Positions 3,711 through 64,000 of a DNA stretch of 64,000 nt are shown here, piece by piece. The translations under genes and the position numbers were made by a program. Position 1 is the stretch's first letter. Each line of letters starts with the position of its first letter. Source of the stretch: Candidatus Uhrbacteria bacterium (lineage in GTDB: Bacteria; Patescibacteriota; Patescibacteriia; UBA9934; UBA10169); the NCBI GenBank assembly GCA_016187485.1, contig JACPJO010000002.1:27912-91911 (forward strand), in the 5' to 3' direction. The notes under the pieces are model-generated. The model was not told the origin of the DNA, ran no database searches, and saw only the letters and a program-made list of their open reading frames with translations.

Positions 3711-3837
3711 AGGAATAAGTTTATGGCGCGCCAAACAAAATATCTCCCCAACGAGGGAGATATTTGTTATGATCATTCCACCACAAATTGAGAAAAAAGT
3801 CAATGACTGTTAGGATGCTTTTTGTGCATAACTTTTA

Positions 3838-3922: not shown

Positions 3923-3955
3923 CAAATCACCTTCGTGATTAAAATTCTTCTCTCT

Positions 3956-4318
3956 ATGCATGAAGGACTACATCGTCCCGTTGAGGTAAAAGTAACCTTA
4001 CCCACAGAACTCGAGCTCACCAACCGGATCGGAGCCGCTGTTTCCGATCTCAATAAGCGTGTGAAAAACCGCGAGCGCATCACGGTACGTGCGCGTCTCT
4101 ACACAGAAGTCCTGCCGGAACTTCAAAGGCTTCTTGAAGAGCAGGAAGCTCCTATGGGGGACCCGGAGTTGGCTGAAAAAATTCGTCCGCTTGTGATGGA
4201 GGCCGGGAAGACACTCACAAAAAGCGTGCGGACCCAAGTTGAAGAGTCCCTGCTTGATGCGTTGCGGGCATTTAGAGTGGAGTTTATTACTCCGCCAAGT
4301 CAAGAAGAGGCAGCGTAG
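3956..4318 (+). CDS. Hypothetical small protein
   Basis: ORF 3881..4318 overlaps the tRNA. The first Met after the tRNA is at 3956 (MHEGLH...). I recognise no family. Confidence 0.3.
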   Translation: MHEGLHRPVEVKVTLPTELELTNRIGAAVSDLNKRVKNRERITVRARLYTEVLPELQRLLEEQEAPMGDPELAEKIRPLVMEAGKTLTKSVRTQVEESLLDALRAFRVEFITPPSQEEAA

Positions 4319-4361
4319 AGTGATTGTCACCACGGGAGCTTCCTGATAGGATCGGGCCATT

Positions 4362-4958: not shown

Positions 4959-5052
4959 GCCCGTTTTTTAAGGATTTCCTTCATAAAATGAGCTTGACTT
5001 TCGCATAGACTGGTTGTGGAAAGGTTGAGGATAGAAAGCGGCGAGGAGGCTA

Positions 5053-5081
5053 TTGACAGGGAGAAGGGCCTACGATAAGAT
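5053..5081 (+). promoter_or_regulatory. Candidate sigma70-type promoter for the 23S-5S operon
   Basis: TTGACA, then a 17-nt spacer, then TAAGAT, about 440 nt upstream of the mature 23S 5' end. A second TTGACT lies near 4994. No 16S gene sits between the promoter and the 23S. Confidence 0.3.
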
Positions 5082-7673
5082 ACCTCCGCTTTATACACGG
5101 CTTCTGTGTCCCCGGAACGTGGAGATGAGATGGAGGGACGGAGGGAAGCGCGTGGTGAACCCAACATGAACTACATCGTAGAACAATCGTTGCGGAAACA
5201 TCACACGCCATAAACCCCCTCTTAGGGTGCGTCTGATGTTCCCGCGATTCGCGGGAATTTTGTTTCACTACAGAGCATTGCTCCGGGCATCGAATCAGTG
5301 CTCTGGCGTGAAGGCCAGACGGAACCTTCACAATTTACACACCAATACAAACAATGTCGCACGCAGAAATGCGTGTGGCGATGGCATGGAAAAAGCCTCA
5401 ACTACAAGGCATGGGGAGTCAGCGTCGGAGTCGTACTTTTTGTACGACGACGAGCTGACGGGGCCCCATAACGCCGTAGATGAGGAATTTTTACATGCCA
5501 GATCTATACAGATAGTGGGTGAAGAGCATAAGGGCAGATGGTGGATGGCTCGACCATAGACGCCGATGAAGGACGTAGCAGCCTGCGATAAGCTTCGGGG
5601 AGGTGGCAAGCAACCTTTGATCCGGAGATCTCCGAATGGGGAAACCCGGTCTGAAGAAGTCAGATCATCCAACACTGAATACATAGGTGTTGGGAGGTTA
5701 CCTGGTGAAGTGAAACATCTCAGTAGCCAGAGGAAAAGAAAAAGATAGCTCGTTGTGTATACGAAGGTTCTCCATTGGGAGCTTTCGTATACAACAACGA
5801 GAACATTCCCCTAGTAGTGGCGAGCGAACGGGGAACAGTCTAAACTTCGTGGATGAAGCGTTGAACAAAGTGGGTATCATTGATATTCATCCGTTTGGCG
5901 TGAAAGGCAAGGGCCGTTGTCCACGGAGGGTTGCAAGATGCGCGCGCGTCTTTCCCTTGAAAGGCGACATGATCGTTGTGTTATAGGAGAATCTGCTGGA
6001 ACGCAGAACCAAAGAGGGCGAACGTCCCGTATCCAAAATATCAACACGACGTGTGGTGCGCATTCTTAAGTACCACGAGACACGAGAAATCTTGTGGGAA
6101 CCTAGCGCGACTATGTGCTAAGACTAAATACGTCTATGGATCGATAGTGAACAAGTACCGCGAGGGAAAGCTGAAAAGAACCCCGGAAGGGGAATGAAAT
6201 AGTTTCTGAAACCATCTGCTTACAAGGAATCGGAGTCCCTCCGTAGCCGCAAGGTGAAGAGGGATGACGGTGTTCCTATTGAAGAATGAGCCAACGAGTG
6301 TGCTGCATGTCGCCGGTTAAGTCCTCCGGGATGAAGCCAGAGTGAAAGCAAGCATTAACGTGCGTCTCTAGCAATGTTCAAGGATGAGTTTCTCATTCTT
6401 GAACATGGCTAGAAGGTGGCATGCACACGACCCGAAACCGGGTGACCTAACCATGACCAGGGTGAAGTCCCGCGAAAGCGGGATGGAGGCCCGAACTCAC
6501 GTGCTGTGCAAAACACGGAGACGAGTTGTGGTTAGCGGAGAAATTCCAATCGAACTCGGTAATAGCTGGTTCTCTCCGAGATAGCTTTAGGGCTAGCGTC
6601 GGTTACAGTCTGTTGGGGGTAGAGCACTGAATGGGACAACCGCCTTCGGGTAGGTGTCCTAACCAAACTCCGAATACCAGCAGATGATCCCGGCAGTCAG
6701 ACGATGGGGGCGAAGCTCCATACGTCGAAAGGGAAACAGCCCAGATCTCAAACTAAGGTCCCAAAATCATCGTTAAGTGTAAAAGGTGGTGAGAAGACTT
6801 ATACAGTCAGGAGGTTGGCTTAGAAGCAGCCATCCTTTAAAGAAAGCGTAACAGCTCACTGATCAAGTTTTCTTGCGCCAAAAATGAATCGGGGCTAAAC
6901 GGTGTACCGAAGTTGAGGATGTCCCGCCTTTGGCGGGACGTGGTAGGAGAGCATTCGTGTCAGCGCTGAAGCCATACTGCGAGGTGTGGTGGAGCGGCAC
7001 GAAGAGAGAATGTTGGCATAAGTAGCAAAAAGACGGGTGAGAACCCCGTCCGCCGCAAACCCAAGGTTTCCACAGCTACGCAAATCGTCTGTGGGTGAGT
7101 CGGGAGCTAAGGCGAGCCCGAAAGGGGTAGTCGATGCACAGCTGGTTAATATTCCAGCACTTCGTTTACGTTCTGATGGGGGGACGTTCCGTGTACCTTC
7201 CTGCGTCCTATGGCTATGACGTCAGGAACTCTGGAGTGGCTTGTAGGAAAATCCGCAAGCCGCAAGCTCCGGGGTTGTCGCAATCTCGGGTTACACCGAG
7301 GGAGAGGAGGGGAAGCGGAACCAAGAAAAGCCTCTAGGGTTAACGTAAACGAACCCGTACCGGAAACCGACACAGGTGGGTGGGCATGAATGTGCCAAGG
7401 CGTACGAGAGAATGATCGTTAAGGAACTAGGCAAAAAAGCGGCCGTAACTTCGGGATAAGGCCTGGTTGCTCCCGGGAGGGAGCGACCCGCAGCGAAAGA
7501 CGTCAAGCGACTGTTTACCAAAAACACAGGTCCCTGCAAAACCGTAAGGTGAAGTATAGGGGCTGATGCCTGGCCAGTGTCCGAACGTTAAGGAAGGGGG
7601 TCATGCCCGCAAGGGCGGCAGCCTTCGACTGAAGCGCGGATGAACGCCGGCGATAACTATAATCGTCCTAAGG

Positions 7674-7929
7674 TTTTCCGTATTTTGGCTAAATTTAGCG
7701 AAAGTACGGAGAAGGACTGGGACGATTACGGTGAGTGGGTAAACAAATGAAGTGCTGCCTCACTCTACAGTAATGTAGAGTTGGTCCAAACATGGCTATT
7801 TGCTGGGAACCAGTTGCCAACTGGGATCAGCAGGGAAGTCCTCCGTGGCGGGGACCCCTCAGAGACTAAACGCCGTGCCCCTGGTGCAATCAGGGTGAAG
7901 ATATAGTCCTCCGTCCAAAGGAAACGGAA
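7674..7929 (+). other. Intervening sequence in 23S at an E. coli L1917-equivalent site (probable small group I intron, no ORF)
   Basis: Conserved CCTAAGGT is separated from AGCGAAATTCC by about 256 nt of non-rRNA sequence. Confidence 0.45.
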
Positions 7930-7949
7930 AGCGAAATTCCTTGTCGGGT

Positions 7950-8656
7950 GAACCATGTTCCTCTGTGGTCGGAGAGAACTTGCCCGAGTATCGTGGTAAC
8001 ATGATACAAGCAATCCAGCTCATAACGGGGAATCCTCAATGAGGAAATCCCGTGGGAAGCCCCGCTAAAGGTGGGGCCCCGTAACGACTGACCCGAAAGG
8101 GGAGGTTCCGCAGGTGCGGGACAACACGCTGGCTCTTCCTGATAAGACCAACCTATGGAGATTAATCCATGGTATGTATCTGGATTCGTCGATGGTGAAG
8201 GGAGCTTTCTCGTTTCCTTTTCTGTTCGTCAAAAGATGACGATGGGAATTGAAGCGAGGCCAAGTTTCACCATCAGCCAACACAAGAGAAGTATAAATGT
8301 GCTAGAGCACATCAAGACATACTTCGGGTGTGGCACGATCCGTTACAACATCCATGATGATACATACAAATATGAAGTGAGAAGTCTGGGAGATCTTCTT
8401 TGGAAGATTATTCCGCACTTCGAGCAGTATCCTCTCAGAACGTTGAAGCAGAAAGACTTTGAAACGTTTCGAGATATTTGTTACCTCATGCACACGCAAC
8501 ACCATCGATGTTCGTCTGGTATTAGACAGATCATTGATGTCGCCTATCAAATGAACAATTTTGGGGCGAGGCGTTATACGAAAGAAGATCTCCTAAAGGT
8601 GGTGGGAAGATGAAGGTATAGTCTGAACATCATGGCAACATGATGACTAACATTGG
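7950..8656 (+). mobile_element. Intervening sequence in 23S at an L1931-equivalent site (probable group I intron) carrying a LAGLIDADG homing-endonuclease gene
   Basis: Conserved TTGTCGGGT is separated from AGTTCCGACCTGCACG by about 707 nt. It contains ORF 8155..8613. Confidence 0.55.
8155..8613 (+). CDS. LAGLIDADG-family homing endonuclease (single-motif, I-CreI-like)
   Basis: N-terminal [13 protein letters not shown] motif, about 150 aa. Lies wholly inside 23S intervening sequence B. Local GC is lower than in the flanking rRNA. Confidence 0.75.
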   Translation: MEINPWYVSGFVDGEGSFLVSFSVRQKMTMGIEARPSFTISQHKRSINVLEHIKTYFGCGTIRYNIHDDTYKYEVRSLGDLLWKIIPHFEQYPLRTLKQKDFETFRDICYLMHTQHHRCSSGIRQIIDVAYQMNNFGARRYTKEDLLKVVGR

Positions 8657-8688
<32 letters not shown>

Positions 8689-9169
8689 GACGACTGTCTC
8701 AACGATCAACTCGGCGAAATTGCAAGAGGAGTGAAGATGCTCCTTACTCGTAGTTAGACGAAAAGACCCCGTGAAGCTTTACTACAACTTGGTATTGGTT
8801 TCAGATTTCGCATGTTGAGCGTAGGTGGGAGCTTCGGCGCCAATGAGACACCACCCTTGCGTTATTTGAAGTCTAACTTCGGACCGTGAATCCGGTTCGA
8901 AGGACAGTATCTGGTGGGTAGTTTGACTGGGGCGGTAGCCTCCCAAAAAGTAACGGAGGCGTTTACAAAGGTTGGCTTAGCGCGGATGGAAATCGCGCTG
9001 AAAGGGCAAACCCACAAGCCAGCTTTACTGCAAGACTGACACGTCGCGCAGTCGCGAAAGCGGAAGTTAGTGATCCGACCGTACGACATAGGACGGCGGA
9101 AGCTCAACGGATAAAAGCTACTCCGGGGATAACAGGCTGATCAGGCCCAAGCGTCCACAGCGACGGCCT

Positions 9170-9210
<41 letters not shown>

Positions 9211-9241
9211 AAGAAGCTCCCAAGGGTTTGGCTGTTCGCCA

Positions 9242-9285
<44 letters not shown>

Positions 9286-10021
9286 GGACAAAACCGCGCT
9301 GTCTATAAATTCGACTATATGCTGGAAACCCTGAATGAGTCTCAACAGGAGTAGAGGCTCAAAGAATCTCACACTACGTGCTATGCTTATTAAATATGGC
9401 ACGTGAAAATGTGTTGAGTGCAGGCAATCAGCAGGGAAGATTACATCGTCTTCAACCGTGGTATATCAGTGGTTTTGTGGATGGGGAAGGAAGCTTTCAT
9501 GTGGCGCTCTATAAAGATGCACACATGAAGACGGGATGGAAAATCATCCCAGAATTCCACGTCTCCCAACGTATAAGCAGTCGCCAAGTTCTTGATAGGC
9601 TTGTGGACTTCTTTCGTTGTGGGTATGTAAAACCAAACCATAGAACAAGTTCTTCCGATTTGACGTACGTATATGTTGTACGGGATCGCGGAGATCTTCT
9701 AAAGAAAATCATCCCTTTCTTTCAGCGGCATAACCTCCAGACGGAGAAAGTAAAAGACTTTCAACTGTTTGCGAGAGTTGTACAGCTGATGGAAAAGGGG
9801 GAACACCGGAACACCAACGGAGTAAAAAAGATTTTCGAGATCGCATACCAGATGAATGGTGGCGGTCGGTATCGACGGAAAAAAATACAAGCGATGTAAA
9901 ACCCTCAGAGACTATATGTCGAATTCCGCCATTTGCGGAAAAGATATAGTCCGAACTGCATGGCGACATGCAGAGAACACAAGAAATTGTGTTCCTCCAC
10001 AATTGTGGAAGTAACATATTG
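9286..10021 (+). mobile_element. Intervening sequence in 23S at an L2593-equivalent site (probable group I intron) carrying a LAGLIDADG homing-endonuclease gene
   Basis: Conserved GTCGTGAGACAGT is separated from TCGGTCTCCTATC...CTAGTACGAGAGGACCGG by about 736 nt. It contains ORF 9378..9899. Confidence 0.55.
9378..9899 (+). CDS. LAGLIDADG-family homing endonuclease
   Basis: [16 protein letters not shown] motif. The probable start is the Met at 9396. About 170 aa, inside 23S intervening sequence C. Confidence 0.75.
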
Positions 10022-10151
10022 TCGGTCTCCTATCTACTATGAGCGTTGAAGGTTGAGGGAACCCATTCCTAGTACGAGAGGACCGGAATGGACGAACCTC
10101 TTGTGTACCGGTTGTTCTGCCAAGGGCATTGCCGGGTAGCAACGTTCGGTT

Positions 10152-10184
<33 letters not shown>

Positions 10185-10339
10185 TGATCCCAAGATAAGC
10201 CTTCGTATGAGACCCCTCCGAGACGAGGAGGTTGATAGGCCGCAGGTAGAAGCGTGGTAACACGTGAAGCCGAGCGGTACTAATCGGTCCAGCTCTTCAC
10301 CCACTACCTGTAAAGATCACTTTGTATTGAGCGCATTGT

Positions 10340-10447
10340 TCTGGTGACATTTCCGGCAGGGCCACACCCGTTCCCATCTCGAACACGGCCGTTAAGCCTG
10401 TCCGGGCCGATGGTAGTCACATGGCGAGAGTAGGTCGTCGCCAGAAC
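10340..10447 (+). rRNA. rrf: 5S ribosomal RNA
   Basis: CCACACCCGTTCCCATCTCGAACACGG...GCCGATGGTAGT...GAGAGTAGG matches the bacterial 5S consensus. Lies about 40 nt after the 23S 3' end. Confidence 0.85.
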
Positions 10448-10492
10448 AATGGGCTTGATACAAACACCTCGATGAAAAACCGTCGGGGTGTT

Positions 10493-11218
10493 TTATTTAA
10501 GTATGGTGATGCGCGGGTCCTTACGATCGAGGCCGGGACTGAAGGCAAAAACCTCTCGTACACGCAAACGAGGAACCCCCTCTGGTTCCTCGTAGGTAAG
10601 AGAAACGGCACGATGGCGAACTTTGATAATCCATGTGTGCTCGCCTACCTGCCACCCGCGCATAGGGAATGTCTGAAGTTCACGTTGCTCAAAGACAAAG
10701 GGAGATGGCACGGGGGCAAGCAGAGAGGAGCGTACCCATTCAATGGTATGGTGCTCGATCTCGGAATAAGGATCGTTCCACTGATGTGTGTGCGTAAATG
10801 TGCGGAGCGTTGATGGATCATGTGCCATGGACGCGAAGATTTTTTGAATATGTGCAGGCAGGAGATTCGGTGCCGCGTGCCCCGGTCCCATACTGATCGT
10901 GATGTAGCGTACCACCTCTTCGGGCATCATAAATCCGTGCGACTGTCCGGCACGGATGATGACACTTGCTCCAGGTTCCAGAGTGACGCAAGACTTCTGA
11001 CTAATGACCGTGAGCGTCCCCTTCACCACAAGATAAAAGCGGTCAGCTTGATGGATGTGGAGGGGGATGTACCCCGGCCTCGCGTGCGCATGGAGGAGCA
11101 GCTCGTACGTGTCGGTCTCTCTCCATCGCACAACTCCATGCCCCTGCTCGCCAATCTTTGGCCAGAGTTCTTGCGGCATCATTCCAAGTGGGAGAGTTTG
11201 TTCATCCATACTATCCAT
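10493..11218 (-). CDS. Cupin-domain protein (possibly bicupin)
   Basis: HAHARPGYIPLHIHQADRFYLVVKGTLTV...GASVIIRAGQSHGF is a typical cupin motif pair (G(X)5HXH...G...PxG..H). A second cupin-like half follows in the C-terminal region. Confidence 0.5.
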   Translation of the reverse strand: MDSMDEQTLPLGMMPQELWPKIGEQGHGVVRWRETDTYELLLHAHARPGYIPLHIHQADRFYLVVKGTLTVISQKSCVTLEPGASVIIRAGQSHGFMMPEEVVRYITISMGPGHAAPNLLPAHIQKIFASMAHDPSTLRTFTHTHQWNDPYSEIEHHTIEWVRSSLLAPVPSPFVFEQRELQTFPMRGWQVGEHTWIIKVRHRAVSLTYEEPEGVPRLRVREVFAFSPGLDRKDPRITILK

Positions 11219-39506: not shown

Positions 39507-39534
39507 GGCCCCGCATGAAGCGAGGCCTGGGGCC

Positions 39535-40013
39535 GGGAAACGTATAAGCCGAATTCTGTTCTCCCATCACTCTTTGCAGAGCGTTAGGAGAGGTGACTAT
39601 CTATCTTGACTGCTCATTGCTGAACAGCTCCGCATGATCCTTGCGAACCATGCACGCGAGCGACCAAATTTGCTCTTGCACCGAAAAGGGTTTACCACAC
39701 CTCTGCGTCACCGCAGGGCGAATCGCGTAGCCCCGAAGGACATCGCGAAACTTTTCACGTTTCCCCCTACATAGCTCCGTGAGGAGCGACGTGGGGTAGT
39801 ATTGTCTCTGTGACACTTTCCCTAGAGTTCTCTCTGAGCCCGAAGAGCAATCTCTCCGGCAAAGCCGGATCCGGCTTTGCCGGACAGCTCCTCGATTCCA
39901 GATTTCCTCTGGCCGCCGTTAGCGGCTTTTCTTGTCTTCCTCTCTTGCGAAAGGGTAGGGTGTTCGGACTTTCCTCTCCCGCTTTTAACAGGAGCAGTCA
40001 CCGCGTTTCCTGG
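39535..40013 (-). ncRNA. rnpB: RNase P RNA (bacterial type, with insertions)
   Basis: Minus strand carries GGAAACG (P1 5') ...GAGAGGAAAGTCCGAAC (P4 5' strand, universal GGAAAGTCCG)... and ...GAGAACAGAATTCGGCTTATACGTTTCC (P4 3' strand ACAGAA-CGGCTTA plus P1 3'). It fills a 550-bp gap with no ORF between wbaP and trpS. Confidence 0.65.
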
Positions 40014-45544: not shown

Positions 45545-46318
45545 GTGTTCTTCCATGCGTCGTGTCGCGCGATCCTCCATATGATACCATGGTACCACAT
45601 GGAGGATTCCAAGCGCTGGCTCCCGATTGTCGTGACGGGCATCTTGCTTTTGCTTGCGGGATTGTTTGTGCTTCGCGTCGTCGTTTTTTACAGCCAGATT
45701 CGCAAAGGCGACGACCAACAGCGTTCTTTCGGCGCGTCCGCCGAGCTCACACGCTCGCCCGCGCTGGCGGCAGCGATCCGTTCCACTCCCGCAGATGAAG
45801 TGTATAGCGTGGAGGACGACGATGACCCCATGCTTGGGGGCAAGGACGCACGGCTCACTATTGTGGAGTTTGCCGACTTTGGCTGCCCGTACTCGCGCAA
45901 GGCCTCGTCATCCATGCGCGCCCTTGCACTTACCTACGGCGAGAACATCCGCTATATCTATCGCGATTTTCCGATCACCGAGATTCATCCCGACGCGTTT
46001 TTAGCGGCGCAGGCAGGACAATGTGCCAACGAGCAGGATAAGTTCTGGGTCTATCACGACGCACTCTACCAACACCAAGAGGACCTTTCTCGCGCGGCGC
46101 TCCGTTCGTATGCACAGGCGGTAGGGATGGATGTCGGAGCATTTGATCGTTGTCTTGCCAGTGGGCGCTACCGCCAGGAAGTGGAAAAAGATTACGCGGA
46201 AGGTGTGGCGGCGGGCGTCGTGGGAACACCCACATTCTTTTTCAATGGGCGCCGTGTGGAAGGAGCCATCCCCCTCGAGATTCTTCGTTCGCTCATAGAC
46301 ACTTTTCTTAAGGTATGA
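45545..46318 (+). CDS. DsbA-family thiol:disulfide oxidoreductase (membrane-anchored)
   Basis: N-terminal TM, then thioredoxin fold with CPYS active site (EFADFGCPYSRKA) and ...GTPTFFFNGRRVEG. The stop overlaps the start of the next gene (ATGA). Confidence 0.6.
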   Translation: MFFHASCRAILHMIPWYHMEDSKRWLPIVVTGILLLLAGLFVLRVVVFYSQIRKGDDQQRSFGASAELTRSPALAAAIRSTPADEVYSVEDDDDPMLGGKDARLTIVEFADFGCPYSRKASSSMRALALTYGENIRYIYRDFPITEIHPDAFLAAQAGQCANEQDKFWVYHDALYQHQEDLSRAALRSYAQAVGMDVGAFDRCLASGRYRQEVEKDYAEGVAAGVVGTPTFFFNGRRVEGAIPLEILRSLIDTFLKV

Positions 46319-47646
46319 GAGCGCTCATCTCTCTGCTTTTCTTTCTCTCCTTCGCCCTGCCCGTGCAGGCGGCGGATCCGGCAGGGACTTGCCGGTGTTG
46401 GTGCGGGTCGACCGCGGGCGCTATTGAGTATGGCGTGTATCGTCCGGATGAAACGGAGTGTTTGAACCTCTGCAAGAGCATCAACCAGAGGTACTTGGGT
46501 TGTGTTGCGGAGGAAGACATTTCTCCTTTGGAGAACCTACGCTGTTGGTCTGCGCAAGAGTGCACACAAACCAATGCGGCGACGGGGAATCCGTCGGGAA
46601 TTTTTGATGATACACAGCCAACCGAATGCATGCCCGGATTCCGTTACTGTTTTCCCTATCCCGAACCGATTCCTCTTAGCGTGCATTTTGGGGACAAGAC
46701 GTTTGTTTATGGGATTGGCGGGTACACCGCGACCGTGTATCGCTGGCTTATAGGCGCTGCAGCTGTCTTTGCTGTCATCATGCTCATGGCAGGCGGCATA
46801 CAATATATGCTGGCGGGCGGGAGCGGGAACGTAAAAGAAGCGAAGGATCGCATGAAAAACGCCATCATCGGTTTTGTCATTCTTCTTTCAAGCTATCTCT
46901 TATTGCTCACGGTAAATCCGCAAACGTTATCCTTGCGCTTACCGTCTTTGCCGAAAATCCGCCCGCTCATCGTCGCAGACGGGAACCAGTCATGCGAGGC
47001 GTACCAGAATGCCAAATACCACGTGGAGGTAAACGGGAGCCAATTTTTCAGCGGGCTGTCTTGTGGCAGAAAAGGATCGGTAACGAAAGGACCCGACGGC
47101 GCGCAGCTTTCAGAGGAGACATCGTGTTTTTTCCGCGCGTGTACGCAAGCATCCATGACGGCAGCGGGGGAGACCTGTGCGATCGATACGACCGAAGAGA
47201 CCGGCTCGTGCATGACATGCGCGGATATTACGGCTGGCCAGACGGCAACACCGGGAGTGCTTGCCTCTCCCTCGTTGTGCAGCGGTTTATCGCAACTCGC
47301 CGGAGGATCGGGAAGCCGAGAACTTTGCCTCTATGTCCCCGCCGCTCCCGAGGAGAAGTTTCCGGACGGGTATTGCGGAAGTTTGACGCTCGACTGCAAC
47401 GCCATTGAAGACTGCGAAGATTACGGAGACCTCGTCCCGTACAATTCTGTGGTAGAACAGGTGGTGTCTACGCATACAGCCGTTACTATTGCCGCTGACC
47501 TTGAGGGCCTTTCAGAAAAAACGGGGCGCGAGGGAGAACCGCTTGCCGGTGTGTGCACAGACGATCCGTGCAACCTTGCGGCGGAAGGAAAACGCTGTGG
47601 CGTGCGCGTGACAGGGAATGATGTTTCGTGCGTCACAAATCCCTGA
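46315..47646 (+). CDS. Secreted Cys-rich protein with central two-TM hairpin (TrbC/VirB2-pilin-like core)
   Basis: Signal peptide MRALISLLFFLSFALPVQA. The Cys-rich N-domain has about 12 Cys. Two hydrophobic helices are separated by a short basic loop (WLIGAAAVFAVIMLMAGGIQYMLAGGSGNVKEAKDRMKNAIIGFVILLSSYLLLLTV). The Cys-rich C-domain has about 16 Cys. Confidence 0.45.
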   Translation: MRALISLLFFLSFALPVQAADPAGTCRCWCGSTAGAIEYGVYRPDETECLNLCKSINQRYLGCVAEEDISPLENLRCWSAQECTQTNAATGNPSGIFDDTQPTECMPGFRYCFPYPEPIPLSVHFGDKTFVYGIGGYTATVYRWLIGAAAVFAVIMLMAGGIQYMLAGGSGNVKEAKDRMKNAIIGFVILLSSYLLLLTVNPQTLSLRLPSLPKIRPLIVADGNQSCEAYQNAKYHVEVNGSQFFSGLSCGRKGSVTKGPDGAQLSEETSCFFRACTQASMTAAGETCAIDTTEETGSCMTCADITAGQTATPGVLASPSLCSGLSQLAGGSGSRELCLYVPAAPEEKFPDGYCGSLTLDCNAIEDCEDYGDLVPYNSVVEQVVSTHTAVTIAADLEGLSEKTGREGEPLAGVCTDDPCNLAAEGKRCGVRVTGNDVSCVTNP

Positions 47647-53384: not shown

Positions 53385-53459
53385 AGGCCCGTAGCTCAGC
53401 GGTAGAGCATCGAGCTTATACCTCGACGGTCGCTGGTTCGATCCCAGCCGGGCCTACCA
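53385..53459 (+). tRNA. tRNA-Ile with genomically encoded UAU anticodon (AUA-decoding), CCA encoded
   Basis: AGGCCCG TA GCTC AGCGGTA GAGC A TCGAG CTTATAC CTCGA CGGTC GCTGG TTCGATC CCAGC CGGGCCT A CCA. Acceptor stem perfect, U8/A9 present, anticodon positions 34-36 read TAT. Confidence 0.75.
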
Positions 53460-56686: not shown

Positions 56687-57220
56687 CTAACAGTGTTCTT
56701 CTACGGTAAATACTCGGATCCACCGTGCGTGACGGGATTTTCGAAAGAGGTCTGTGATGGGTTCTGCGGCGTCAAAAGGGGAAATCCACACGCTTCTTTG
56801 TATTGGCATGAATCCGGCAGATTCAAGGAAACCACGCAGAAGCTTTCGGAGAGATCGGTGCGACTCTGGAATATCAAATACCACCATACACATTTTTTCT
56901 TCCGGGAGGAGGTCGGCATCGAAGACGCGGAGCCGGAAAATTTCTTGCCACCCCTTTTCTGTAATGGCCACCTCATATTTTTTAGCGGCACGCCGTGTTT
57001 TGATAAATCGTAATCGGCGAAGCCGGTCTAATGCTTGCTGTCGAGCCTTTCTTTTTGCCCGGGCATGGGCAATATGTAGTCCGTCGTAACCGTAGTAGTT
57101 GAGTGTGCGCCGCCCTTGTCGGCTCATCAACAAAAAGTAAGCTTCTCCCAAGTGAGAGAGTTCAGAAAGTATTCGTGCGGTCTCCGACCGATCTTTCAGG
57201 TGATAGAGCCGTGAGAGCAT
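56687..57220 (-). CDS. PaaX-like / Cas2-fold-like small regulator (wHTH plus VFDIPE motif domain)
   Basis: The probable start is MLSRLYHL. The ORF-track start at 57286 would read through the 44-bp palindrome. The N-terminal region is winged-helix-like. The central MVVFDIPESHRSLRKLLRGFLESAGFMPIQRSVWISP resembles the PaaX middle domain and the Cas2/VapD beta-alpha-beta core. Confidence 0.4.
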   Translation of the reverse strand: MLSRLYHLKDRSETARILSELSHLGEAYFLLMSRQGRRTLNYYGYDGLHIAHARAKRKARQQALDRLRRLRFIKTRRAAKKYEVAITEKGWQEIFRLRVFDADLLPEEKMCMVVFDIPESHRSLRKLLRGFLESAGFMPIQRSVWISPFDAAEPITDLFRKSRHARWIRVFTVEEHC

Positions 57221-57236
57221 ATTTGCGTAGATTCGA

Positions 57237-57280
57237 TCGAACCTCACACAAGGGCCGATCGGCCCTTGTGTGAGGTTCGA
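57237..57280. repeat. Perfect 44-bp palindrome TCGAACCTCACACAAGGGCCGA|TCGGCCCTTGTGTGAGGTTCGA
   Basis: Read directly from the sequence. An imperfect copy of the core (CCTCACACAAGTGCCGATCGGCCCTTGCATGAAG) lies at 56647..56680, immediately after the stop of the same gene. Confidence 0.9.
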
Positions 57281-57310
57281 ATACAATTGAAGAAACTATA
57301 TCAGGTATTC

Positions 57311-57397
57311 CTTCACGTGTTGAGCAGAGACCGAAACATCTTCACGTGTTGAGCAGAGACCAAAACATCTTTACGTGTTGAGCAGAAACACAAAATC
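57311..57397. repeat. Three tandem, spacer-less 29-bp direct repeats (CTTCACGTGTTGAGCAGAGACCGAAACAT, then x2 variants)
   Basis: Copies at 57311-57339, 57340-57368 and 57369-57397. The third is the most diverged. Each contains the CACGTG palindrome. An A-rich tract follows. Confidence 0.85.
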
Positions 57398-57789: not shown

Positions 57790-60225
<2,436 letters not shown>

Positions 60226-60254
60226 CTCGCATCTGCGTGATCGTTCTTCTCTAC

Positions 60255-60803
60255 TCAACCGGCTTCCCCGGTTGTTTCGTTTTCTATCTCAATAATGGTC
60301 ACGGGAACATCATTCCAGTTGAATTGGGCTTTGAATGTTGCGTTTTCGTTACCCCCCACCCACACACGCCAATTCATAGTCGGAAGCAATCTGGCACATT
60401 CATCTGATTTCCCTGGCGTTGTATCGAAGAAAAGGAGGATTTCATTCTTATCTTCACTTACTTTTGATGTCACATGTCGATCAATGCACGTGCCATCGAT
60501 AGGGATAGAACCTTCCAGATAATGTTGCTTCTTATCAGCTTGCCACAAATGCTTCAATATAATCTCACTTGGGTGGTACAACGACTGGTAGTTCTCTGGG
60601 GCCGGGGGAGGGAAGGGGGCCTTTTGGGCTGGTTTCGGTTCGGGCTTCCAGATAGTGAAGTTGAATATGATGATCAAAACAGCAAGACAAATAAGGATGA
60701 GGCGGAAAATTACTTGGGGCGTTGGTCGTGTCATATTGAGAAAGAGTGTATTACAGGAAGACACATGTGGCAAAACAAAAACCTGTTTTCCACAGATTTC
60801 CAC
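60255..60803 (-). CDS. Hypothetical membrane-anchored protein
   Basis: An alternative start at the internal Met (MTRPTPQVIFRLILICLAVLIIIF, TM anchor). Pro-rich linker, then a small globular region. The gene is lower in GC than its surroundings. Confidence 0.4.
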   Translation of the reverse strand: MEICGKQVFVLPHVSSCNTLFLNMTRPTPQVIFRLILICLAVLIIIFNFTIWKPEPKPAQKAPFPPPAPENYQSLYHPSEIILKHLWQADKKQHYLEGSIPIDGTCIDRHVTSKVSEDKNEILLFFDTTPGKSDECARLLPTMNWRVWVGGNENATFKAQFNWNDVPVTIIEIENETTGEAG

Positions 60804-60993
60804 AGTCGAAACTCACGTGTTTTTTAGGGTCGTGCTATACTCCCTCCATACAACATAGGTACCTATGCATCTAACGAATGCAGTCTATTCAGTGTATTTT
60901 ACGTCGTAAGTCGATACGGCGGCCTTTTGTTAAGTAATTTTAAAATCGAAGTCGCTCATATACGCGTATAGCGAGTTCGAGAACATGTGAATT

Positions 60994-63900
60994 ATGAGTC
61001 AATACGTTAAATCAGTACTTTACGGGAAGGGAGGATGGCTGGCGCTTACGACGGTTACGGCCGTCGTGCTTGCCGCCACGGTGTCCCTTGTGACCCAGAC
61101 GACGCTGTTTTCAAGAGCGGCGATCTCTGGCCTCACGGTGGATCCGCTTATTACGACAGCGAACCGCGGTATCGTGGCAAGTTCACTGCAAGTTCCGGTG
61201 GTCGGGATTGATGTAGTTGGAAGCGCGGGAGAGTCTATTGATTACGTAGATGTCTCTGTTGATGATGCAGGCGGTGGCGAGTTTACCTACGCTACTGATC
61301 TTGCTGCTCTGGCTTCTGGTGTGAATGAGGCCTCAGGTGTTGCGCTCTATGTTGACGACGGAAGCTCATCTGGCCAGTTTGATTCCACAGATAGCATTGT
61401 GAGTTCATCTGCACTGGAAGACAACGGCGCTGGTGAAGTGCGTGTAAACGTCACCGCATCGCTCCCCGCGAATGACACGGGGGCAAACAGCGGCGATGAC
61501 TTTTATATTGTCATTCGATCTGGTGCCGATGACGCTGACACGGATGCCGGGGATGACTTTGATGTCAAAGTAGACAACGGTGACCTCGTGTTTAGCGACG
61601 CAAGCACGAATGGTGCAGAGGTTGCAGACACAACGAACCTTATCTTTGACCCGACGGCTCCGACTGTCTCAAGCCGAACGACTGTTGATGCCGATGATGA
61701 TGGATTTATCGATGCGGTGGATGTCGTGTTTACAGATGCGCAGTCGAGCGGGTTGAATGATGATTTCTCCGGTTTGACGATTGACGTTGCTGGTTACTCC
61801 GGCGAGTCAGTCGGGACGGGGAGTACGTCGGGTGACCTTACTATTCGTGTAACAGTGACAGAGCAAACATCCCCAAACTTCGATACGGATGCGATCCCGA
61901 CTGTACAAGTGACGGCAAACACGACACTTTCAGATCTCACTGTTGGCCGCGTCCGTGAAACGACATCAAGTAGCATTACTACATCAAACGGAAACTTACA
62001 CGCGACAGGCGCCGCAGTAGCTTCAACAGATGGGGCTGCGCCTGCCATTGTGGGTGTCGCGACAGATGATACGGATGGCAACGGCACGGTGGATCGGGTG
62101 ACGCTAACATTCTCCGAGCCCATTGATACCGTTGACTCTGGTGGTGCTGTAGACGGGTTTAATGCGTTGGAGGGTCTGGAAAATAGTTGTGCGATTGCCA
62201 ACCAAGATCTTAGCGCTAGCGACGATACAGAGTCCATGGATATTACAGTGTCTAGCTGTACTGCGGGCGATACAGCCATCACCACAACGATTAACTATGA
62301 ACAGGATGGCGCTTCGACGATCTTTGATAATGCTGCAAGTCCAATTGAAATGGAGGATGAAGAGACGACAACGAATGAACGTGATAACGCTCCGCCGGCC
62401 ATCCTTAGTTCAACCACGGACGATACGGATGGCGATGGTACCGTAAATCGCGTCACGCTCGCCTTCTCCGAGACCGTTGATATTGCTGATGGGAACGCGG
62501 GAGACGGCTTTAATGGTCTTGAGGGACTCGAGAATAGCTGTACGATTGCCAACCAAGACTTGGCTTCCAACAGTGTATCCTCCATCGCCATTACCGTTTC
62601 CGGCTGTACAGCTAGCGATACCTCTATTACCACAACGATCAATTACGAACAGGATGGTACGAACACTATTCTTGATGAGTCTGCGTCTGCAAACGAGATG
62701 GATGATGAGGAAGCATCTGGTTCAGAGGTTGACGGTGCCCCGCCTGCGATTCTTTCTATCACGACCGATGACACCTCCGGAGACGGTACAGTGGATCAAC
62801 TGACCGTGGCCTACTCGGAACAGGTGGATATTGTGGACACCAACGCTGGTGCAGACGGTTTCCCTGGTTTTGACGGCGTTACGGACTCCTGTGCCATCAG
62901 CAACCAAGATGAAACGGCAAGCAATGTTACGTCTTCAGTACTTACGGTAGGAAGCTGTACGGCGAGCGATACGTCCATATTAGTAGAACTTTCGTACAAC
63001 TCCGGCGACGCCAACACAAGCATTATTGATAATGCCTCCGTTGAGATGGATGATAACGAAACGGTAGCGACCGGTACCGATGGTGCTCCCCCAGCCATTC
63101 TTTCCATCACCACAGATGACACCTCCGGAGACGGTACAGTGGATCAACTTACCGTGGCCTACTCCGAACAAGTTGATATTGTGGATACAGGAACAGGCAC
63201 AGACGGCTTTGGCGGCTTCGATGGCCTCACGGACTCCTGTGCCATCAGCAACCAAGATGAGACGGCGAGTAATACGACATCTTCGGTTCTCACTGTTGCA
63301 AGCTGTACGGCGAGCGACACGTCCATCCTCGTAGAGCTTGCCTACAATGCAGGCGATGCAACAACAAGCATTATCGACAATGCTTCCGTGCAGATGGATG
63401 ATGATGAGACGATCGCTACAGGTATTGATGGGGCTCCGCCGGCGATTCTCTCGTCGACCTCTGATGACACGAATGGGAACGGCAACGTGGACCAGATTAT
63501 TCTGGTGTACTCCGAGCAAGTAGACATCACAGATGGTGCCGCCGGGGATGCGTTTCCAGGTGTCACGTTCTCGGACAGCTGTGTTGCGGCCAATGCAGAT
63601 TATGCGGCAAATAACGCCACAAGCAGCACGATTACTGTTTCCAGCTGTACATCAAACGACACATCTATCACGGTTGATCCCACCTATGCGGCCGCCTCTG
63701 GGCAGATCCAAGACAACGCAGCAACTCCGGTGGAGATGGACAACGGAGAGACAGTGACAGGTATAGATAACGCTCCGCCCGCCTTTATCTCGTCGACCTC
63801 CGATGACACGGATGGAAACGGCAACGTGGACCAGATCACCATCGTTTACTCCGAAGCTGTAGACATCACGGATGGTTCTGGTGCCGATGCTTTCCCAGGC

Positions 63901-64000
63901 GTGACGTTCTCGGACAGCTGTGTGGCGGCTAATGCGGACTATGCGGCGAACAATGCCACAAGTTCGACAATCACTGTTGCAAGCTGTACCTCAAATGATA
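60994..64000 (+). CDS. Giant cell-surface repeat protein (5' partial; over 1000 aa in window) with tandem about 105-aa repeats carrying DxDGDGTVD calcium-binding-like loops and paired Cys
   Basis: An ATG at 60994 follows an in-frame TGA. The N-terminal TM/signal is WLALTTVTAVVLAATVSLV. I hand-translated the frame with no stop through the window end; it is missing from the ORF track, presumably because it has no stop in the window. At least seven repeats of the form DGAPPAILS.TTDDT.GDGTVD..T..YSE.VDI.D....DGF.G..G...SC.I.NQD..A....SS....SCTASDTSI......Y....D..T.I.DNAS.EMDD.ET. Confidence 0.6.
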   Translation, partial: MSQYVKSVLYGKGGWLALTTVTAVVLAATVSLVTQTTLFSRAAISGLTVDPLITTANRGIVASSLQVPVVGIDVVGSAGESIDYVDVSVDDAGGGEFTYATDLAALASGVNEASGVALYVDDGSSSGQFDSTDSIVSSSALEDNGAGEVRVNVTASLPANDTGANSGDDFYIVIRSGADDADTDAGDDFDVKVDNGDLVFSDASTNGAEVADTTNLIFDPTAPTVSSRTTVDADDDGFIDAVDVVFTDAQSSGLNDDFSGLTIDVAGYSGESVGTGSTSGDLTIRVTVTEQTSPNFDTDAIPTVQVTANTTLSDLTVGRVRETTSSSITTSNGNLHATGAAVASTDGAAPAIVGVATDDTDGNGTVDRVTLTFSEPIDTVDSGGAVDGFNALEGLENSCAIANQDLSASDDTESMDITVSSCTAGDTAITTTINYEQDGASTIFDNAASPIEMEDEETTTNERDNAPPAILSSTTDDTDGDGTVNRVTLAFSETVDIADGNAGDGFNGLEGLENSCTIANQDLASNSVSSIAITVSGCTASDTSITTTINYEQDGTNTILDESASANEMDDEEASGSEVDGAPPAILSITTDDTSGDGTVDQLTVAYSEQVDIVDTNAGADGFPGFDGVTDSCAISNQDETASNVTSSVLTVGSCTASDTSILVELSYNSGDANTSIIDNASVEMDDNETVATGTDGAPPAILSITTDDTSGDGTVDQLTVAYSEQVDIVDTGTGTDGFGGFDGLTDSCAISNQDETASNTTSSVLTVASCTASDTSILVELAYNAGDATTSIIDNASVQMDDDETIATGIDGAPPAILSSTSDDTNGNGNVDQIILVYSEQVDITDGAAGDAFPGVTFSDSCVAANADYAANNATSSTITVSSCTSNDTSITVDPTYAAASGQIQDNAATPVEMDNGETVTGIDNAPPAFISSTSDDTDGNGNVDQITIVYSEAVDITDGSGADAFPGVTFSDSCVAANADYAANNATSSTITVASCTSND

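Follow-up and report, generated by a model that had tools for sequence, protein, structure and literature searches.

The question raised by the end of this window, a 64,000-nt stretch of DNA from Candidatus Uhrbacteria, is what is encoded by the long reading frame that opens there and runs off the last base. The first-pass annotation had read it as a stop-free frame from 60994 onward, encoding a giant tandem-repeat surface protein and left out of the ORF track for lack of an in-window stop. Translation from the ATG at 60994 to 63999 (+ strand), preceded by an in-frame TGA at 60988-60990, indeed gives 1002 codons without a stop, and the frame is missing from the track since it runs off the end. 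The expectation that automated annotation would miss the gene proved wrong: NCBI carries it as MBI2484695.1, and the Logan gene calls include a 601-aa fragment. The first 1002 residues of this GenBank protein (P0024) match the window frame at 1002/1002 positions (100%), identifying 60994..64000 (+) as the first 1002 codons of the gene. The record, from a Candidatus Uhrbacteria contig of 96,882 bp, lengthens the product to 2659 aa, which is a lower bound, as the contig still ends inside the gene and cuts the protein. The window frame thus probably covers the 5′ third of the gene, whose product would be a secreted surface fibre, giant and extremely acidic, of Candidatus Uhrbacteria, a CPR (Patescibacteria) lineage; the 23S rRNA with a group I intron in the same window fits the CPR setting.

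The protein, of at least 2659 aa and about 267 kDa, contains 15% Asp+Glu, 1.2% Lys+Arg and 26% Ser+Thr, and consists, in order, of a signal or anchor at the N-terminus, the N-domain (176 aa), 19 domains, a Big_5 domain, a Gly run and another Ig-like domain at the contig end. A domain HMM run on MBI2484695.1 places the 19 domains, each about 115 aa, in tandem back to back without linkers; most carry a DxDxDGxxD loop, and eight consecutive copies have a conserved Cys pair in addition. The Big_5 copy is canonical (aa 2433-2541, Pfam E 3.9e-9). With this chain of Ig-like domains behind an N-terminal signal or anchor, the description as a giant tandem-repeat surface protein was well founded.

The first 44 residues (60994..61125, +) form a predicted Sec-type signal or signal-anchor, as judged from hydropathy and from the start MSQY[VI]KS, which is kept in the distant syntenic sequence L003. 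They begin with basic residues (K6, K12), continue with a hydrophobic core (aa 14-39) and then read TLFSRA|A; this core, which corresponds to the N-terminal TM/signal noted earlier, is the single hydrophobic segment above 1.6 in the 2659 aa (Kyte-Doolittle 19-residue maximum 2.06 at aa 16). The mostly beta N-domain that follows (aa 45-220; 61126..61653, +) gave no match in Pfam, NCBIfam, PHROGs or a word-indexed homologue search, and its AlphaFold model (pLDDT 45) was unusable. Its only detectable relative is aa 46-240 of P0091 (phmmer E 3.2e-12), a 2040-aa protein in which this domain likewise stands directly after the signal peptide and which has a C-terminal FlgD_ig match. As for the suggested C-terminal sorting signal, LPXTG is absent from the available 2659 aa, and neither an SLH nor another known wall-binding module was found there or in the L003 orthologue; the contig ends before the C-terminus. 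Sec would export the protein, and retention at the surface may be achieved by an uncleaved N-terminal helix or by a C-terminal module like that of the syntenic orthologue, the latter route being derived from an L003 protein that aligns with 38% of the query at 38% identity.

The array opens with a divergent, Cys-less DxDxDG Ig-like copy, PTVSSRTTVDADDDGFIDAVDVVFTD... (aa 221-333; 61654..61992, +), recognized by the domain HMM at 15.5 bits (E 1.1e-6) and 50% identical over 34 aa to an L003 domain by BLASTP. It is followed on the same strand by the Cys-type repeats R1 (aa 348-465; 62035..62388) and R2 (aa 466-581; 62389..62736) of subtype a, R3 (aa 582-697; 62737..63084) and R4 (aa 698-813; 63085..63432) of subtype b, and R5 (aa 814-926; 63433..63771) and R6 (aa 927-1039, of which 76 aa lie in the window; 63772..64000) of subtype c. 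The DDTDGDGTVD-type loops and the two invariant Cys per repeat reported from the first reading are present. That reading counted at least seven repeats of about 105 aa; the window holds five complete and one truncated Cys-type repeats plus the one divergent copy, and the unit is longer, at 113-117 aa (339-354 nt), mostly about 116. Over the whole protein the Cys-type subtypes follow the order a a b b c c b a, with R3 and R7 93% identical in amino acids. The level of identity is 63-66% in amino acids and 64% in nucleotides for R1 and R2, 88% and 79-80% for R3 and R4 (dS about 1.3, dN/dS 0.06), and 87-88% and 80% for R5 and R6 (dS 1.06, dN/dS 0.08); the remaining pairs are 54-64% identical in DNA. 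Identities at the three codon positions are 0.90/0.95/0.53, the third position reaching 53-57% in the best pairs. Judged from these substitution patterns, the repeats are old internal duplications under purifying selection, and not a recent or phase-variable expansion, because dS is about 1.1-1.3 and dN/dS 0.06-0.08.

This result bears on the view, taken in the first-pass annotation, of a recently expanded contingency adhesin variable in phase or copy number, with adjacent repeats about 90% identical in DNA. The pair on which that figure was based (62731-63030 and 63079-63378) is in fact 79-80% identical, and with dS of 1.06-1.3 in the best pairs the synonymous sites are near saturation, so that recent expansion fails. 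Exact R3-R4 matches of 35 nt (62767-62801) and 32 nt (62881-62912) could allow rare in-frame recombination, and the interleaved subtypes suggest past block duplication or conversion, but nothing supports a potential for phase variation: all units are in frame, so that slippage would alter length with no on/off switching; the gene and the region ahead of it are free of homopolymer and short-unit tracts (TRF detects no more than the 348-nt period and a 10-nt promoter unit x1.9); and 59151-62796 is base-for-base identical in five contigs from five sequencing runs. We consider such an adhesin very improbable. We attach even less credence to the proposal that the repeats are non-coding satellite DNA or an assembly chimera with an accidentally long frame. 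It is true that the GenBank contig ends inside the gene, that k=31 contigs break within the repeats and that the repeats of the L003 orthologue are themselves interrupted by a stretch of N. The non-coding reading is, however, refuted by the coding evidence: 1002 sense codons (2659 in the full record) are unexpected by chance, the spacings of 354, 348, 348, 348 and 339 nt are all multiples of 3, without the variable phase of a satellite, the third codon position is far less conserved than the first and second, dN/dS is low, hundreds of homologous proteins exist, and the fold is predicted with confidence. The risk of assembly collapse is real but modest rather than high: five independent k=31 Logan contigs all stop at 62796-62801, within the 35-nt repeat, which with the 32-nt one is the longest exact repeat. 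At 80% identity, each repeat is unique over the length of a read, and 59151-62796 is reproduced exactly in five samples. Beyond 62801 the repeats may be miscounted.

An AlphaFold model of R4 (pLDDT 79, pTM 0.71) shows an all-beta, seven-stranded Ig-like sandwich with the D-x-D-x-D-G-x-x-D loop between the first two strands. In a search of 1.84 billion proteins, a profile of the domain matches 1258 at E<=1e-3, many of them several thousand residues long and with up to 43 copies. The Pfam search recommended earlier gave no match for the window repeats even at E<=10, to Big_5 (PF13205) or any other model, and when the repeat profile was compared directly with profiles of Big_5 segments, the match was weak (E 0.007, probability 5%) and confined to the first 33 columns. 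The repeat can be tied to Big_5 transitively, through a domain of P0001 that scores 66.7 bits (E about 3e-21) with the window-repeat HMM and 28.8 bits with Big_5, over the 23.6 cut-off; a Cys-type domain of P0010 reaches 20.9 bits with Big_5 (same cut-off). Besides these relatives at or near threshold and the canonical copy in the giant protein itself, the likeness to Big_5 arrays (named 'Ig-like domain-containing protein' at NCBI) lies in the beta-sandwich of about 105-115 aa, starting A-x-P-x-(I/V)-x-S and with an F-S-E strand, and in the long tandem runs in secreted proteins. The repeats differ in having the D-x-D-x-D-G-x-V-D loop after strand A, where Big_5 has S-P-x-x-G-x-x-x-V, and in the extra Cys pair of eight copies. 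This pair is kept in all 8, occurs in single copies in P0002, P0003, P0006, P0010 and P0011, and is absent as a pair from the other domain subtypes; it would form an intradomain disulfide. SWM_repeat (PF13753, 'putative flagellar system-associated repeat'), also repeated in giant cell-surface proteins, resembles the P0001 domain (E 1e-5, 26.1 bits) and that of P0010 (E 0.018), but both score under its 27-bit cut-off and the window repeats do not match it.

The loop matches the type seen in FG-GAP repeats of integrin-alpha, in which positions 1, 3, 5 and 9 are Asp. D-T-D-G-D-G-T-V-D, with these four Asp and Gly at 6, resembles FG-GAP/VCBS-type, EF-hand and dockerin loops, and as in FG-GAP repeats it joins two beta-strands. 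The matches of the repeat loop to FG-GAP_3, EF-hand and dockerin are weak and non-significant, and a PDB sequence search returned EF-hand and dockerin loop matches only (E 0.85-2.6, non-significant). The likeness is limited to the loop; its host fold here is an Ig-like sandwich, not a propeller blade or helix-loop-helix, and its position 12 is not acidic. Judging from this short motif, the loops would bind Ca2+ and, together with acidic domain ends (E-M-D-D-x-E), would make the chain a stiff rod with a length of tens of nm. The same principle, Ca2+ at acidic junctions of dozens of linker-less Ig-like domains of about 100 aa giving a stiff rod that projects an adhesive end, is known for MpIBP of Marinomonas primoryensis, SiiE and BIg adhesins of the LapA/Bap type (see also PMC7785521). 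Those proteins, however, leave the cell by type I secretion and have RTX repeats at the C-terminus and a retention module at the N-terminus, whereas ours has a predicted Sec-type signal or anchor at the N-terminus, no RTX repeats in the available sequence and no Pfam match to their domains.

With respect to the surroundings, the low-GC island noted ahead of the frame is genuine: GC is 0.438 at 60250-61000 compared with 0.540 for the whole window, in the lowest 0.1% of 750-nt windows, and comparable stretches occur only in or after the 23S rRNA intron region. It contains the membrane-anchored gene noted before (60255..60734, - strand; ORF list and hydropathy), for a 159-aa protein with an N-terminal TM anchor (Kyte-Doolittle maximum 2.91 at residue 8) and an extracytoplasmic part of roughly 110 aa. 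GenBank names it 'OadG family protein' (MBI2484694.1), a name that goes back to the TM helix only: Pfam OAD_gamma matches residues 12-49 at E 0.024 and 15.7 bits, where the cut-off is 27. NCBIfam and PHROGs gave no match, so that no real family was found. Upstream lies the gene for an 811-aa predicted lipoprotein (57790..60225, +; signal ending LSAC), a high-GC outlier (0.58-0.66) with 12 MopE-type 'putative metal-binding' Cys/Asp motifs in 12 PF11617 stretches (Pfam E 2.6e-93). A terminator-like hairpin found by consensus scan after this gene, CAACCGGCTTCCCCGGTTG with a T-rich tail (60256..60284, +), overlaps the 3′ end of the convergent 159-aa gene. In L003 the order is PolyA_pol, a MopE-motif lipoprotein (3083-5419, 36% identical, E 1e-85) and a 2168-aa giant ORF that starts MSQYIKS and closes with Big_5, an Ig domain resembling Kre9_KNH and a C-terminal domain of about 200 aa that is conserved; the 159-aa gene is absent, the intergenic region is 253 nt, and the equivalent hairpin stands directly before the conserved promoter block.

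Comparison with L003 supports the earlier proposal of a promoter region in front of the giant gene. The two giant proteins are merely 30-38% identical, and window 60797-61026 is 70% identical to L003 5483-5705 over 234 columns, with long near-identical blocks. An extended -10 element, TGcTATACT (60832..60840, +; TGtTATAAT in L003), is kept, and transcription would start at about 60847-60849, because strong conservation begins 7-9 nt after this element. About 30-50 nt 5′ of it lies the repeat TTTCCACAG(A)TTTCCACAG (60787..60805, +; TRF, 10-nt unit x1.9), a candidate upstream promoter or regulator site; TTTCCACAG occurs in three exact copies in the window (0.6 expected) and once at the same place in L003. 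The conserved leader, a predicted 5′ UTR of about 146 nt (60848..60993, +), has a local alignment score of 78 between these two sequences, where 100 shuffles reached 17 at most and neighbouring coding DNA reached 25. It gave no Rfam match, its folding z-scores are modest (-1.5 and -1.9), and no Shine-Dalgarno-like sequence precedes the ATG. At its 5′ end is a perfect 14-nt palindrome, CATAGGTACCTATG (60854..60867, +), identical in L003, which would fold as a 5-bp hairpin with a GUAC loop. A terminator-like hairpin, CGTCG...CGGCG followed by CCTTTTGTT (60902..60931, +; consensus scan), recurs in L003, where one pair has changed in a compensatory way (U-A to C-G); it could serve as an attenuator or mark the point at which a short leader transcript ends. 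The palindrome TATACGCGTATA, reported in the first reading and present at 60959-60970, is the apex of a 35-nt imperfect palindrome, TCGAA-G-TCGCT ... AGCGA-G-TTCGA (60946..60980, +); in L003 the stem is kept (GAATTCGCT/AGCGAATTC) and the apex, ATACATGTAT, is again palindromic, the central GC having become AT symmetrically. Perfect 12-nt palindromes number 20 in the window (15.7 +/- 4.3 in shuffles), so none is unusual per se; this one is significant because it is conserved in a second genome.

We regard this promoter and leader, the palindrome included, as the most interesting by-product of the analysis, and two alternatives have to be weighed in which it plays a part. One takes the upstream block as a DNA operator, its palindromes bound by a dimeric regulator, instead of a structured RNA leader. 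That both palindromes stay palindromic in two genomes, the second with its symmetrical change of apex, argues for an operator, as do the weak folding z-scores and the lack of a matching Rfam family. Conservation, however, runs from just after the -10 box into the first codons, as a transcribed leader would, the differences cluster in predicted loops with two compensatory stem pairs, and no adjacent regulator gene is common to both genomes, a PaaX/Cas2-like gene being present in the window only. We therefore hold the operator to be possible but doubtful. The other alternative, which we judge unlikely, is that the giant protein is not a fibrous adhesin but a lattice-forming S-layer protein, which would build a crystalline coat in two dimensions. 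SbsC, Sap and EA1 are the best structural matches of the repeat model; SbsC/SbsB (Geobacillus stearothermophilus) and Sap/EA1 (Bacillus anthracis) are likewise secreted acidic beta-sandwich chains, our protein being very acidic and Thr/Ser-rich, and Ig-like arrays are described as the fold met most often in S-layer lattice proteins (bioRxiv 10.1101/2025.04.02.646754). A further likeness, to highly expressed slp genes, lies in the conserved promoter and the structured leader: Gram-positive S-layer proteins have strong promoters and stabilising 5′ UTRs, in which stem-loops stabilise the mRNA (PMC10221546). Against this, identity to SbsC, SbsB, Sap and EA1 is just 13-14%, and no SLH or known wall-binding module was seen in the 2659 aa or the orthologue. 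Typical S-layer proteins are several times smaller than the at least 2659 aa found here, which is at least 2-3 times longer than those compared. The row of 19 linker-less domains suggests a rod, and the relative L002 has five paralogous genes side by side, a pattern commoner in adhesin families.

Returning to the secreted surface fibre, its closest counterparts in kind of organism, size class and membrane or surface location are the giant envelope proteins of the CPR bacterium Vampirococcus lugosii (1392-4163 aa), for which a role in host recognition and attachment has been proposed (PMC8080830). Those carry WD40, TPR, PKD, DUF11, integrin and fibronectin domains, and that paper describes neither the DxDxDG/Cys Ig subtype nor the conserved leader. 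In Candidatus Uhrbacteria, the conserved extended -10 promoter and the hairpin-rich leader of about 146 nt would drive expression of the giant gene, and its product would likely serve in attachment to host cells or particles or form a coat, fibrous or S-layer-like, in line with what has been proposed for the giant envelope proteins of other CPR bacteria.

Translation from the ATG at position 60994 yields 1002 sense codons up to the end of the window, and since the TGA at 60988-60990, just before this ATG, is an in-frame stop, 60994 is the first possible start. The coordinates and the general idea of a giant surface-protein gene in the first-pass annotation were right, but its expectation that automated annotation would miss the gene was wrong. 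The frame is missing from the ORF list of the window because ORFs running off the source are omitted there, and GenBank carries the product as MBI2484695.1 ('Ig-like domain-containing protein, partial [Candidatus Uhrbacteria bacterium]'), encoded on a 96,882-bp contig whose end falls inside the gene. This protein of 2659 aa (P0024) was the top match of our repeat profile and matches the window product at every one of its 1002 residues (100% identity). The giant gene is real, was annotated beforehand, and is of a kind common in CPR genomes. P0024 begins with a signal or anchor (aa 1-44), which is its sole hydrophobic segment, followed by an N-domain (aa 45-220), 19 linker-less tandem domains (aa 221-2434), 15 of which carry the loop D-x-[DNS]-x-[DN]-G-x-x-[DN], a Big_5 domain (aa 2433-2541, E 3.9e-9), a Gly run, and an Ig-like domain truncated where the contig ends. 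The composition is 15.2% Asp+Glu, 1.2% Lys+Arg and 26% Ser+Thr.

The repeats in the window follow a period of 348 nt (TRF and repeat search), with spacings of 354, 348, 348, 348 and 339 nt, all multiples of 3. When anchored on the protein, the Cys-type units are R1 (aa 348-465), R2 (aa 466-581), R3 (aa 582-697), R4 (aa 698-813), R5 (aa 814-926) and R6 (aa 927-1002 and beyond), and the domain profile detects a divergent Cys-less copy at aa 221-333. The earlier count of seven repeats was about right, with the Cys pair confined to six of the copies; the unit measures ~116 aa rather than the ~105 aa first estimated, and adjacent repeats share at most 80% DNA identity rather than ~90%. The closest pairs are R3/R4 (88% aa and 79% nt identity) and R5/R6 (87% and 80%), followed by R1/R2 (63% and 64%), and all other pairs share 42-59% aa and 54-61% nt identity. 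Between R3 and R4 the identity by codon position is 0.90, 0.95 and 0.53, and the Nei-Gojobori method gives dS ~1.3 and dN ~0.08 for this pair (~1.06 and ~0.09 for R5/R6). The repeats are old duplications under strongly purifying selection and are clearly coding. The recent expansion once supposed does not agree with best pairs of 79-80% nt identity at dS 1.06-1.3, and the suggested phase variation failed the contingency-locus test on the same dS values, with units that are multiples of 3 and DNA identity of ≤80%. TRF detected no simple-sequence tract able to switch frame, the 348-nt period being the only one in the gene, and five Logan contigs compared with the window showed no variation among the five samples. 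In full P0024, eight consecutive Cys-type copies occupy aa 348-1273 in the subtype order a a b b c c b a, R3 and R7 being 93% and R1 and R8 64% identical, and the DxDxDGxxD motif is present at 15 places in the 2659 aa, 7 of them in the window part. Since no other protein among the 150 best-scoring in the repeat-profile search exceeds two Cys-type copies, the amplification of this type is specific to the lineage of the giant gene.

A search of 1.84 billion representative proteins with the repeat profile (alignment A1) gave 1258 matches at E≤1e-3, of which 553 reached 1e-10 and 128 reached 1e-30. No Pfam family was found in the 1002-aa window product at E≤1, nor for R4 alone at E≤10, and NCBIfam gave no match to the window product; the cadherin, Calx-beta, BIg and dockerin families proposed in the first-pass annotation were not matched in Pfam. 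The single Big_5 match (PF13205, E-set clan; gathering score 23.6 bits) in full P0024 lies outside the window. A link of the repeat to this family is indirect: the closely related, Cys-less domain 150-259 of the homologue P0001 scores 66.7 bits with the HMM of the window repeats and 28.8 bits, above the threshold, with Big_5 (profile positions 5-95), and a Cys-type domain of the homologue P0010 reaches 20.9 bits, just under it. Alignment of the repeat alignment with Big_5 segments by hhalign was weak (E 0.007, probability 5%, 33 columns only), and the predicted fold of the repeat is the Ig-like β-sandwich expected of Big_5. The repeat unit is filed, through this indirect link, as a putative divergent Big_5-like Ig domain, in which the DxDxDGxxD loop appears to have taken the place of the stretch after strand A. 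Foldseek gave no significant match to PDB. The loop, with Asp at positions 1, 3, 5 and 9, is predicted to bind Ca2+, and we take its pattern to fit best the β-hairpin Ca2+ loops of integrin FG-GAP repeats; the predicted Ca2+ site would lie close to the domain junction. A dockerin or EF-hand was rejected, as the loop is predicted to lie between two β-strands and its position 12 is Thr, Leu or Ile, not acidic; PDB sequence matches to EF-hand or dockerin chains were non-significant (E 0.85-2.6, 14-20 residues covered). Because the two Cys are invariant in every Cys-type copy of the giant protein and of five relatives, and elsewhere are absent together, a disulfide between them (aa 56/78 of the unit) is suggested.

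No homologues of the N-terminal 345 aa were found by word-indexed search, and the AlphaFold model of the N-domain, built with 3 sequences, reached a pLDDT of only 45 and was unusable. The sole detectable relative of the N-domain was P0091 (2040 aa; 4507-10629 of locus L004), where it occupies the same position right after the signal peptide; the C-terminus of P0091 matches FlgD_ig and presumably is a type IX secretion sorting domain. The N-domain is suggested to be a 'head' module common to proteins with different anchoring ends. Sortase anchoring of the giant protein is contradicted by the absence of LP.[TSA]G both from P0024 and from the complete C-terminus of the syntenic orthologue P0002, the only hydrophobic segment being N-terminal. 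An S-layer protein held by SLH or CWB2 was likewise rejected, since Pfam and NCBIfam gave no match to these or similar wall-anchoring modules in the 2659 aa or in P0002 including its C-terminus (the giant protein's own C-terminus lies past the contig end). A giant adhesin of the RTX/T1SS type does not fit a protein with an N-terminal hydrophobic signal or anchor, and no RTX or haemolysin-type Ca-binding Pfam match was obtained in P0024, P0002 or the homologue P0003.

A conserved C-terminal domain of ~200 aa (...VYYVGxDxKRHxF...RPGTxxVKIQSDP...RWIPxEE...) is encoded at 11400-12179 of L003, the syntenic locus in a distant relative, and is also present in P0003, P0009, P0010, P0026 and P0028; many of these large surface proteins carry it, and no Pfam, NCBIfam or PDB relative of it was found. 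It is a candidate for an anchoring or binding module specific to these bacteria. Judged from the L003 orthologue, the giant protein probably continues beyond the contig end with Big_5, a Kre9_KNH-like Ig domain and this C-terminal domain. We propose that the protein would be exported by Sec and held by the N-terminal helix or the C-terminal module, that its domain chains would form Ca2+-stiffened, disulfide-stabilised rods, and that it may attach the cell or coat its surface, a role also put forward for the giant envelope proteins of Vampirococcus, a CPR bacterium (PMC8080830). With 19-21 domains of ~4 nm each, a fibre of this kind would measure ~70-90 nm. Its principle of action would be that of the BIg adhesins rigidified by Ca2+, and it also shows a resemblance to S-layer proteins built of Ig arrays.

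The longest exact repeats in the gene are 35 nt (62767-62801 = 63115-63149) and 32 nt. The five Logan contigs (runs SRR12113425, 28, 31, 32 and 33), found via the low-GC gene preceding the giant gene and only 3.0-3.7 kb long, match the window with zero mismatches and all stop at 62796-62801, within the 35-nt repeat, and the L003 orthologue contains a run of N within its own repeats. As the GenBank contig also ends in the gene, fragmentation is a real assembly risk; there is no sign of the collapse that had been feared, reads being long enough to tell apart units of only 80% identity. For k=31 assemblies, an exact match of 35 nt between repeats of just 80% identity is enough to cause a break, so that such genes will be systematically fragmented in unitig-level resources. 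Peptide-pattern scans of genome contig and metagenome contig collections detected no relatives of the 1002-aa product.

The low-GC island noticed before the giant gene was confirmed, together with its membrane-anchored gene. GC falls to 0.41-0.46 between ~60300 and 61050, and the value for 60250-61000 (0.438 vs 0.540 for the window) is lower than in 99.9% of 750-nt windows, comparably low GC being found only in and after the intron-bearing 23S rRNA region. The island gene (most plausibly 60255-60734, minus strand) encodes 159 aa with a very hydrophobic N-terminal helix and is named 'OadG family protein' (oxaloacetate decarboxylase γ chain) in GenBank (MBI2484694.1). We rejected this name, as PF04277 scores 15.7 bits against a cut-off of 27 and covers only the TM helix (residues 12-49), and the neighbouring genes are unrelated; NCBIfam gave no match to the gene. 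Because the gene is absent from L003, where the terminator of the upstream lipoprotein gene directly precedes the conserved promoter block, it was either inserted in the lineage of the window or lost in that of L003. A target-site duplication was not seen around it, the duplication of TTTCCACAG being tandem, not flanking.

The 259-nt intergenic region between the island gene and the giant gene holds the conserved promoter and leader. Window 60797-61026 and L003 5483-5705 are identical in 163 of 234 columns, with a local score of 78 vs ≤17 in shuffles and 25 for the adjoining coding DNA; the leader is ~70-80% identical between the two genomes, with the orthologous proteins encoded on both sides just 30-38% identical. 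The TTTCCACAG site is conserved in L003 and duplicated in the window, the extended -10 box reads TGcTATACT in the window and TGtTATAAT in L003, and right after it a near-identical block opens with ATACAACATAGGTACCTATGCAT. RNAalifold on these two sequences, the whole basis of the comparison, predicted four hairpins (31 pairs in all, of which 2 are compensatory): H1, a 14-nt palindrome (60854-60867); a second hairpin (alignment columns 31-54, between H1 and H3); H3, terminator-like with a T-run (60902-60931); and H4, a 35-nt imperfect palindrome (60946-60980) with TATACGCGTATA (60959-60970) at its apex. The 12-nt palindrome TATACGCGTATA, pointed out in the first-pass annotation, is not significant alone; its significance lies in the conservation, L003 still having a palindrome, ATACATGTAT, at the H4 apex. 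The start codon of the giant gene has no Shine-Dalgarno sequence.

We read the block as a putative strong promoter with a structured 5' UTR. Structured 5' UTRs stabilise S-layer mRNAs (PMC10221546). The main rival is that the conserved block, with its retained palindromes, acts as an operator rather than as an RNA leader; the folding z-scores are modest (-1.5 and -1.9). That the 5' UTR encodes a leader peptide was discounted, as the short ORFs from the conserved ATGCAT agree in neither frame nor length between the two genomes. Rfam gave no match to the leader; the one hit at E≤10 in 60200-61100 was a chance match to U6atac (E 3.1) on the other strand. Exact scans with a 21-nt pattern in genome and metagenome contigs and a 17-nt pattern in viral contigs revealed no further copies, and the leader showed no homology to those of the paralogous surface genes of L002, a locus of another relative, or of the next gene in L003. 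That the ~200-nt block (TTTCCACAG site, extended -10 box and 146-nt leader) is an undescribed cis-regulatory leader for the giant surface protein in one lineage of Uhrbacteria and that, jointly, the Cys/DxDxDG Ig domain, which is without a Pfam model and reaches eight copies only here, is a redox- and Ca2+-dependent CPR surface building block is a tentative reading that we consider rather unlikely as a whole. In it the leader, with a 5'-terminal hairpin, an internal terminator-like hairpin and the 35-nt palindromic hairpin directly preceding the start codon, would control the giant protein by stabilising or attenuating the mRNA, or in the form of a short RNA with its end at ~60931.

The RNA genes in the window are a 23S rRNA with a group I intron, 5S rRNA, RNase P RNA and 8 tRNAs. 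Upstream of the giant gene the order is pseudouridine synthase, guanylate kinase, a PolyA_pol-family enzyme, a PaaX/Cas2-like protein, tRNA-Val and an 811-aa lipoprotein with 12 MopE-type motifs, and L003 (ENA ERZ24794656) keeps the order PolyA_pol, MopE-motif lipoprotein (36% identical) and giant ORF (2168 codons including the N-gap, starting MSQYIKS...). The lipoprotein gene (window 57790-60225; L003 3083-5419), with 12 Cys/Asp 'metal-binding' motifs of the MopE type, immediately precedes the giant gene in the two genomes compared and has the highest GC nearby (0.58-0.66). Its conserved C-terminal domain of ~170 aa belongs to no family and gave no homologues in word-indexed search. The lipoprotein and the giant protein may function together.

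Further upstream, the 44-nt perfect palindrome TCGAACCTCACACAAGGGCCGATCGGCCCTTGTGTGAGGTTCGA (57237-57280), by far the longest perfect one in the window, lies within the first codons of the PaaX_M/Cas2-like ORF (56687-57286, minus strand), called from a TTG start. At a distance of 30 nt, between this gene and tRNA-Val, the 29-nt unit CTTCACGTGTTGAGCAGAGACCAAAACAT is repeated head-to-tail in 2.9 copies without spacers (57311-57395, 92% matches). This is not a CRISPR array; it could represent a series of operators or one end of a mobile element. ARAGORN and Rfam identified a tRNA-Ile with anticodon TAT (UAU) at 53385-53459; this tRNA is rare in bacteria, in which AUA is normally read by a lysidine-modified CAU tRNA. 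In the rRNA region (5518-10446), the 23S rRNA spans 3800 nt for a 2925-nt model and includes the group I intron (7731-7928) and low-GC ORFs at 8155-8613 and 9378-9899; the 5S rRNA (10340-10446) follows, with no 16S rRNA nearby, fitting the interrupted, unlinked rRNA genes typical of CPR. The RNase P RNA gene (39529-40013) has 485 nt where the model has 367, and the 30-nt perfect palindrome TCCGGCAAAGCCGGATCCGGCTTTGCCGGA within it (39855-39884) presumably forms an enlarged helix of this RNA. A 443-aa protein (46315-47646) with a type IV secretion system pilin domain (PF18895, E 2.7e-10) is encoded next to a family-5 solute-binding protein gene. In L002 (1-14894; GCA_965231095.1, contig OZ246416.1, 886 kb), five large Big_5/Big_1/Invasin_D3 surface-protein genes in a row, that of P0003 among them, precede an S8 peptidase and a group of genes for glycosyltransferases and sugar epimerases, an arrangement that looks like a surface-protein and glycosylation island.

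The novelty is modest, consisting of the Pfam-less Cys/DxDxDG Ig subtype at eight copies and the conserved leader; the locus is otherwise ordinary, the gene having been annotated beforehand and the supposed recent phase-variable expansion being absent. A life attached to other cells is assumed for CPR bacteria, and the prime candidates for making this contact are the giant proteins of their surface, almost none of which have been characterised. The locus offers a domain subtype missed by current domain libraries, with 1258 related proteins in 1.84 billion, a testable hypothesis of Ca2+ and disulfide stabilisation, and a conserved pair of genes for the MopE-motif lipoprotein and the giant protein, and its conserved promoter and leader could serve as an expression signal for organisms without genetic tools.
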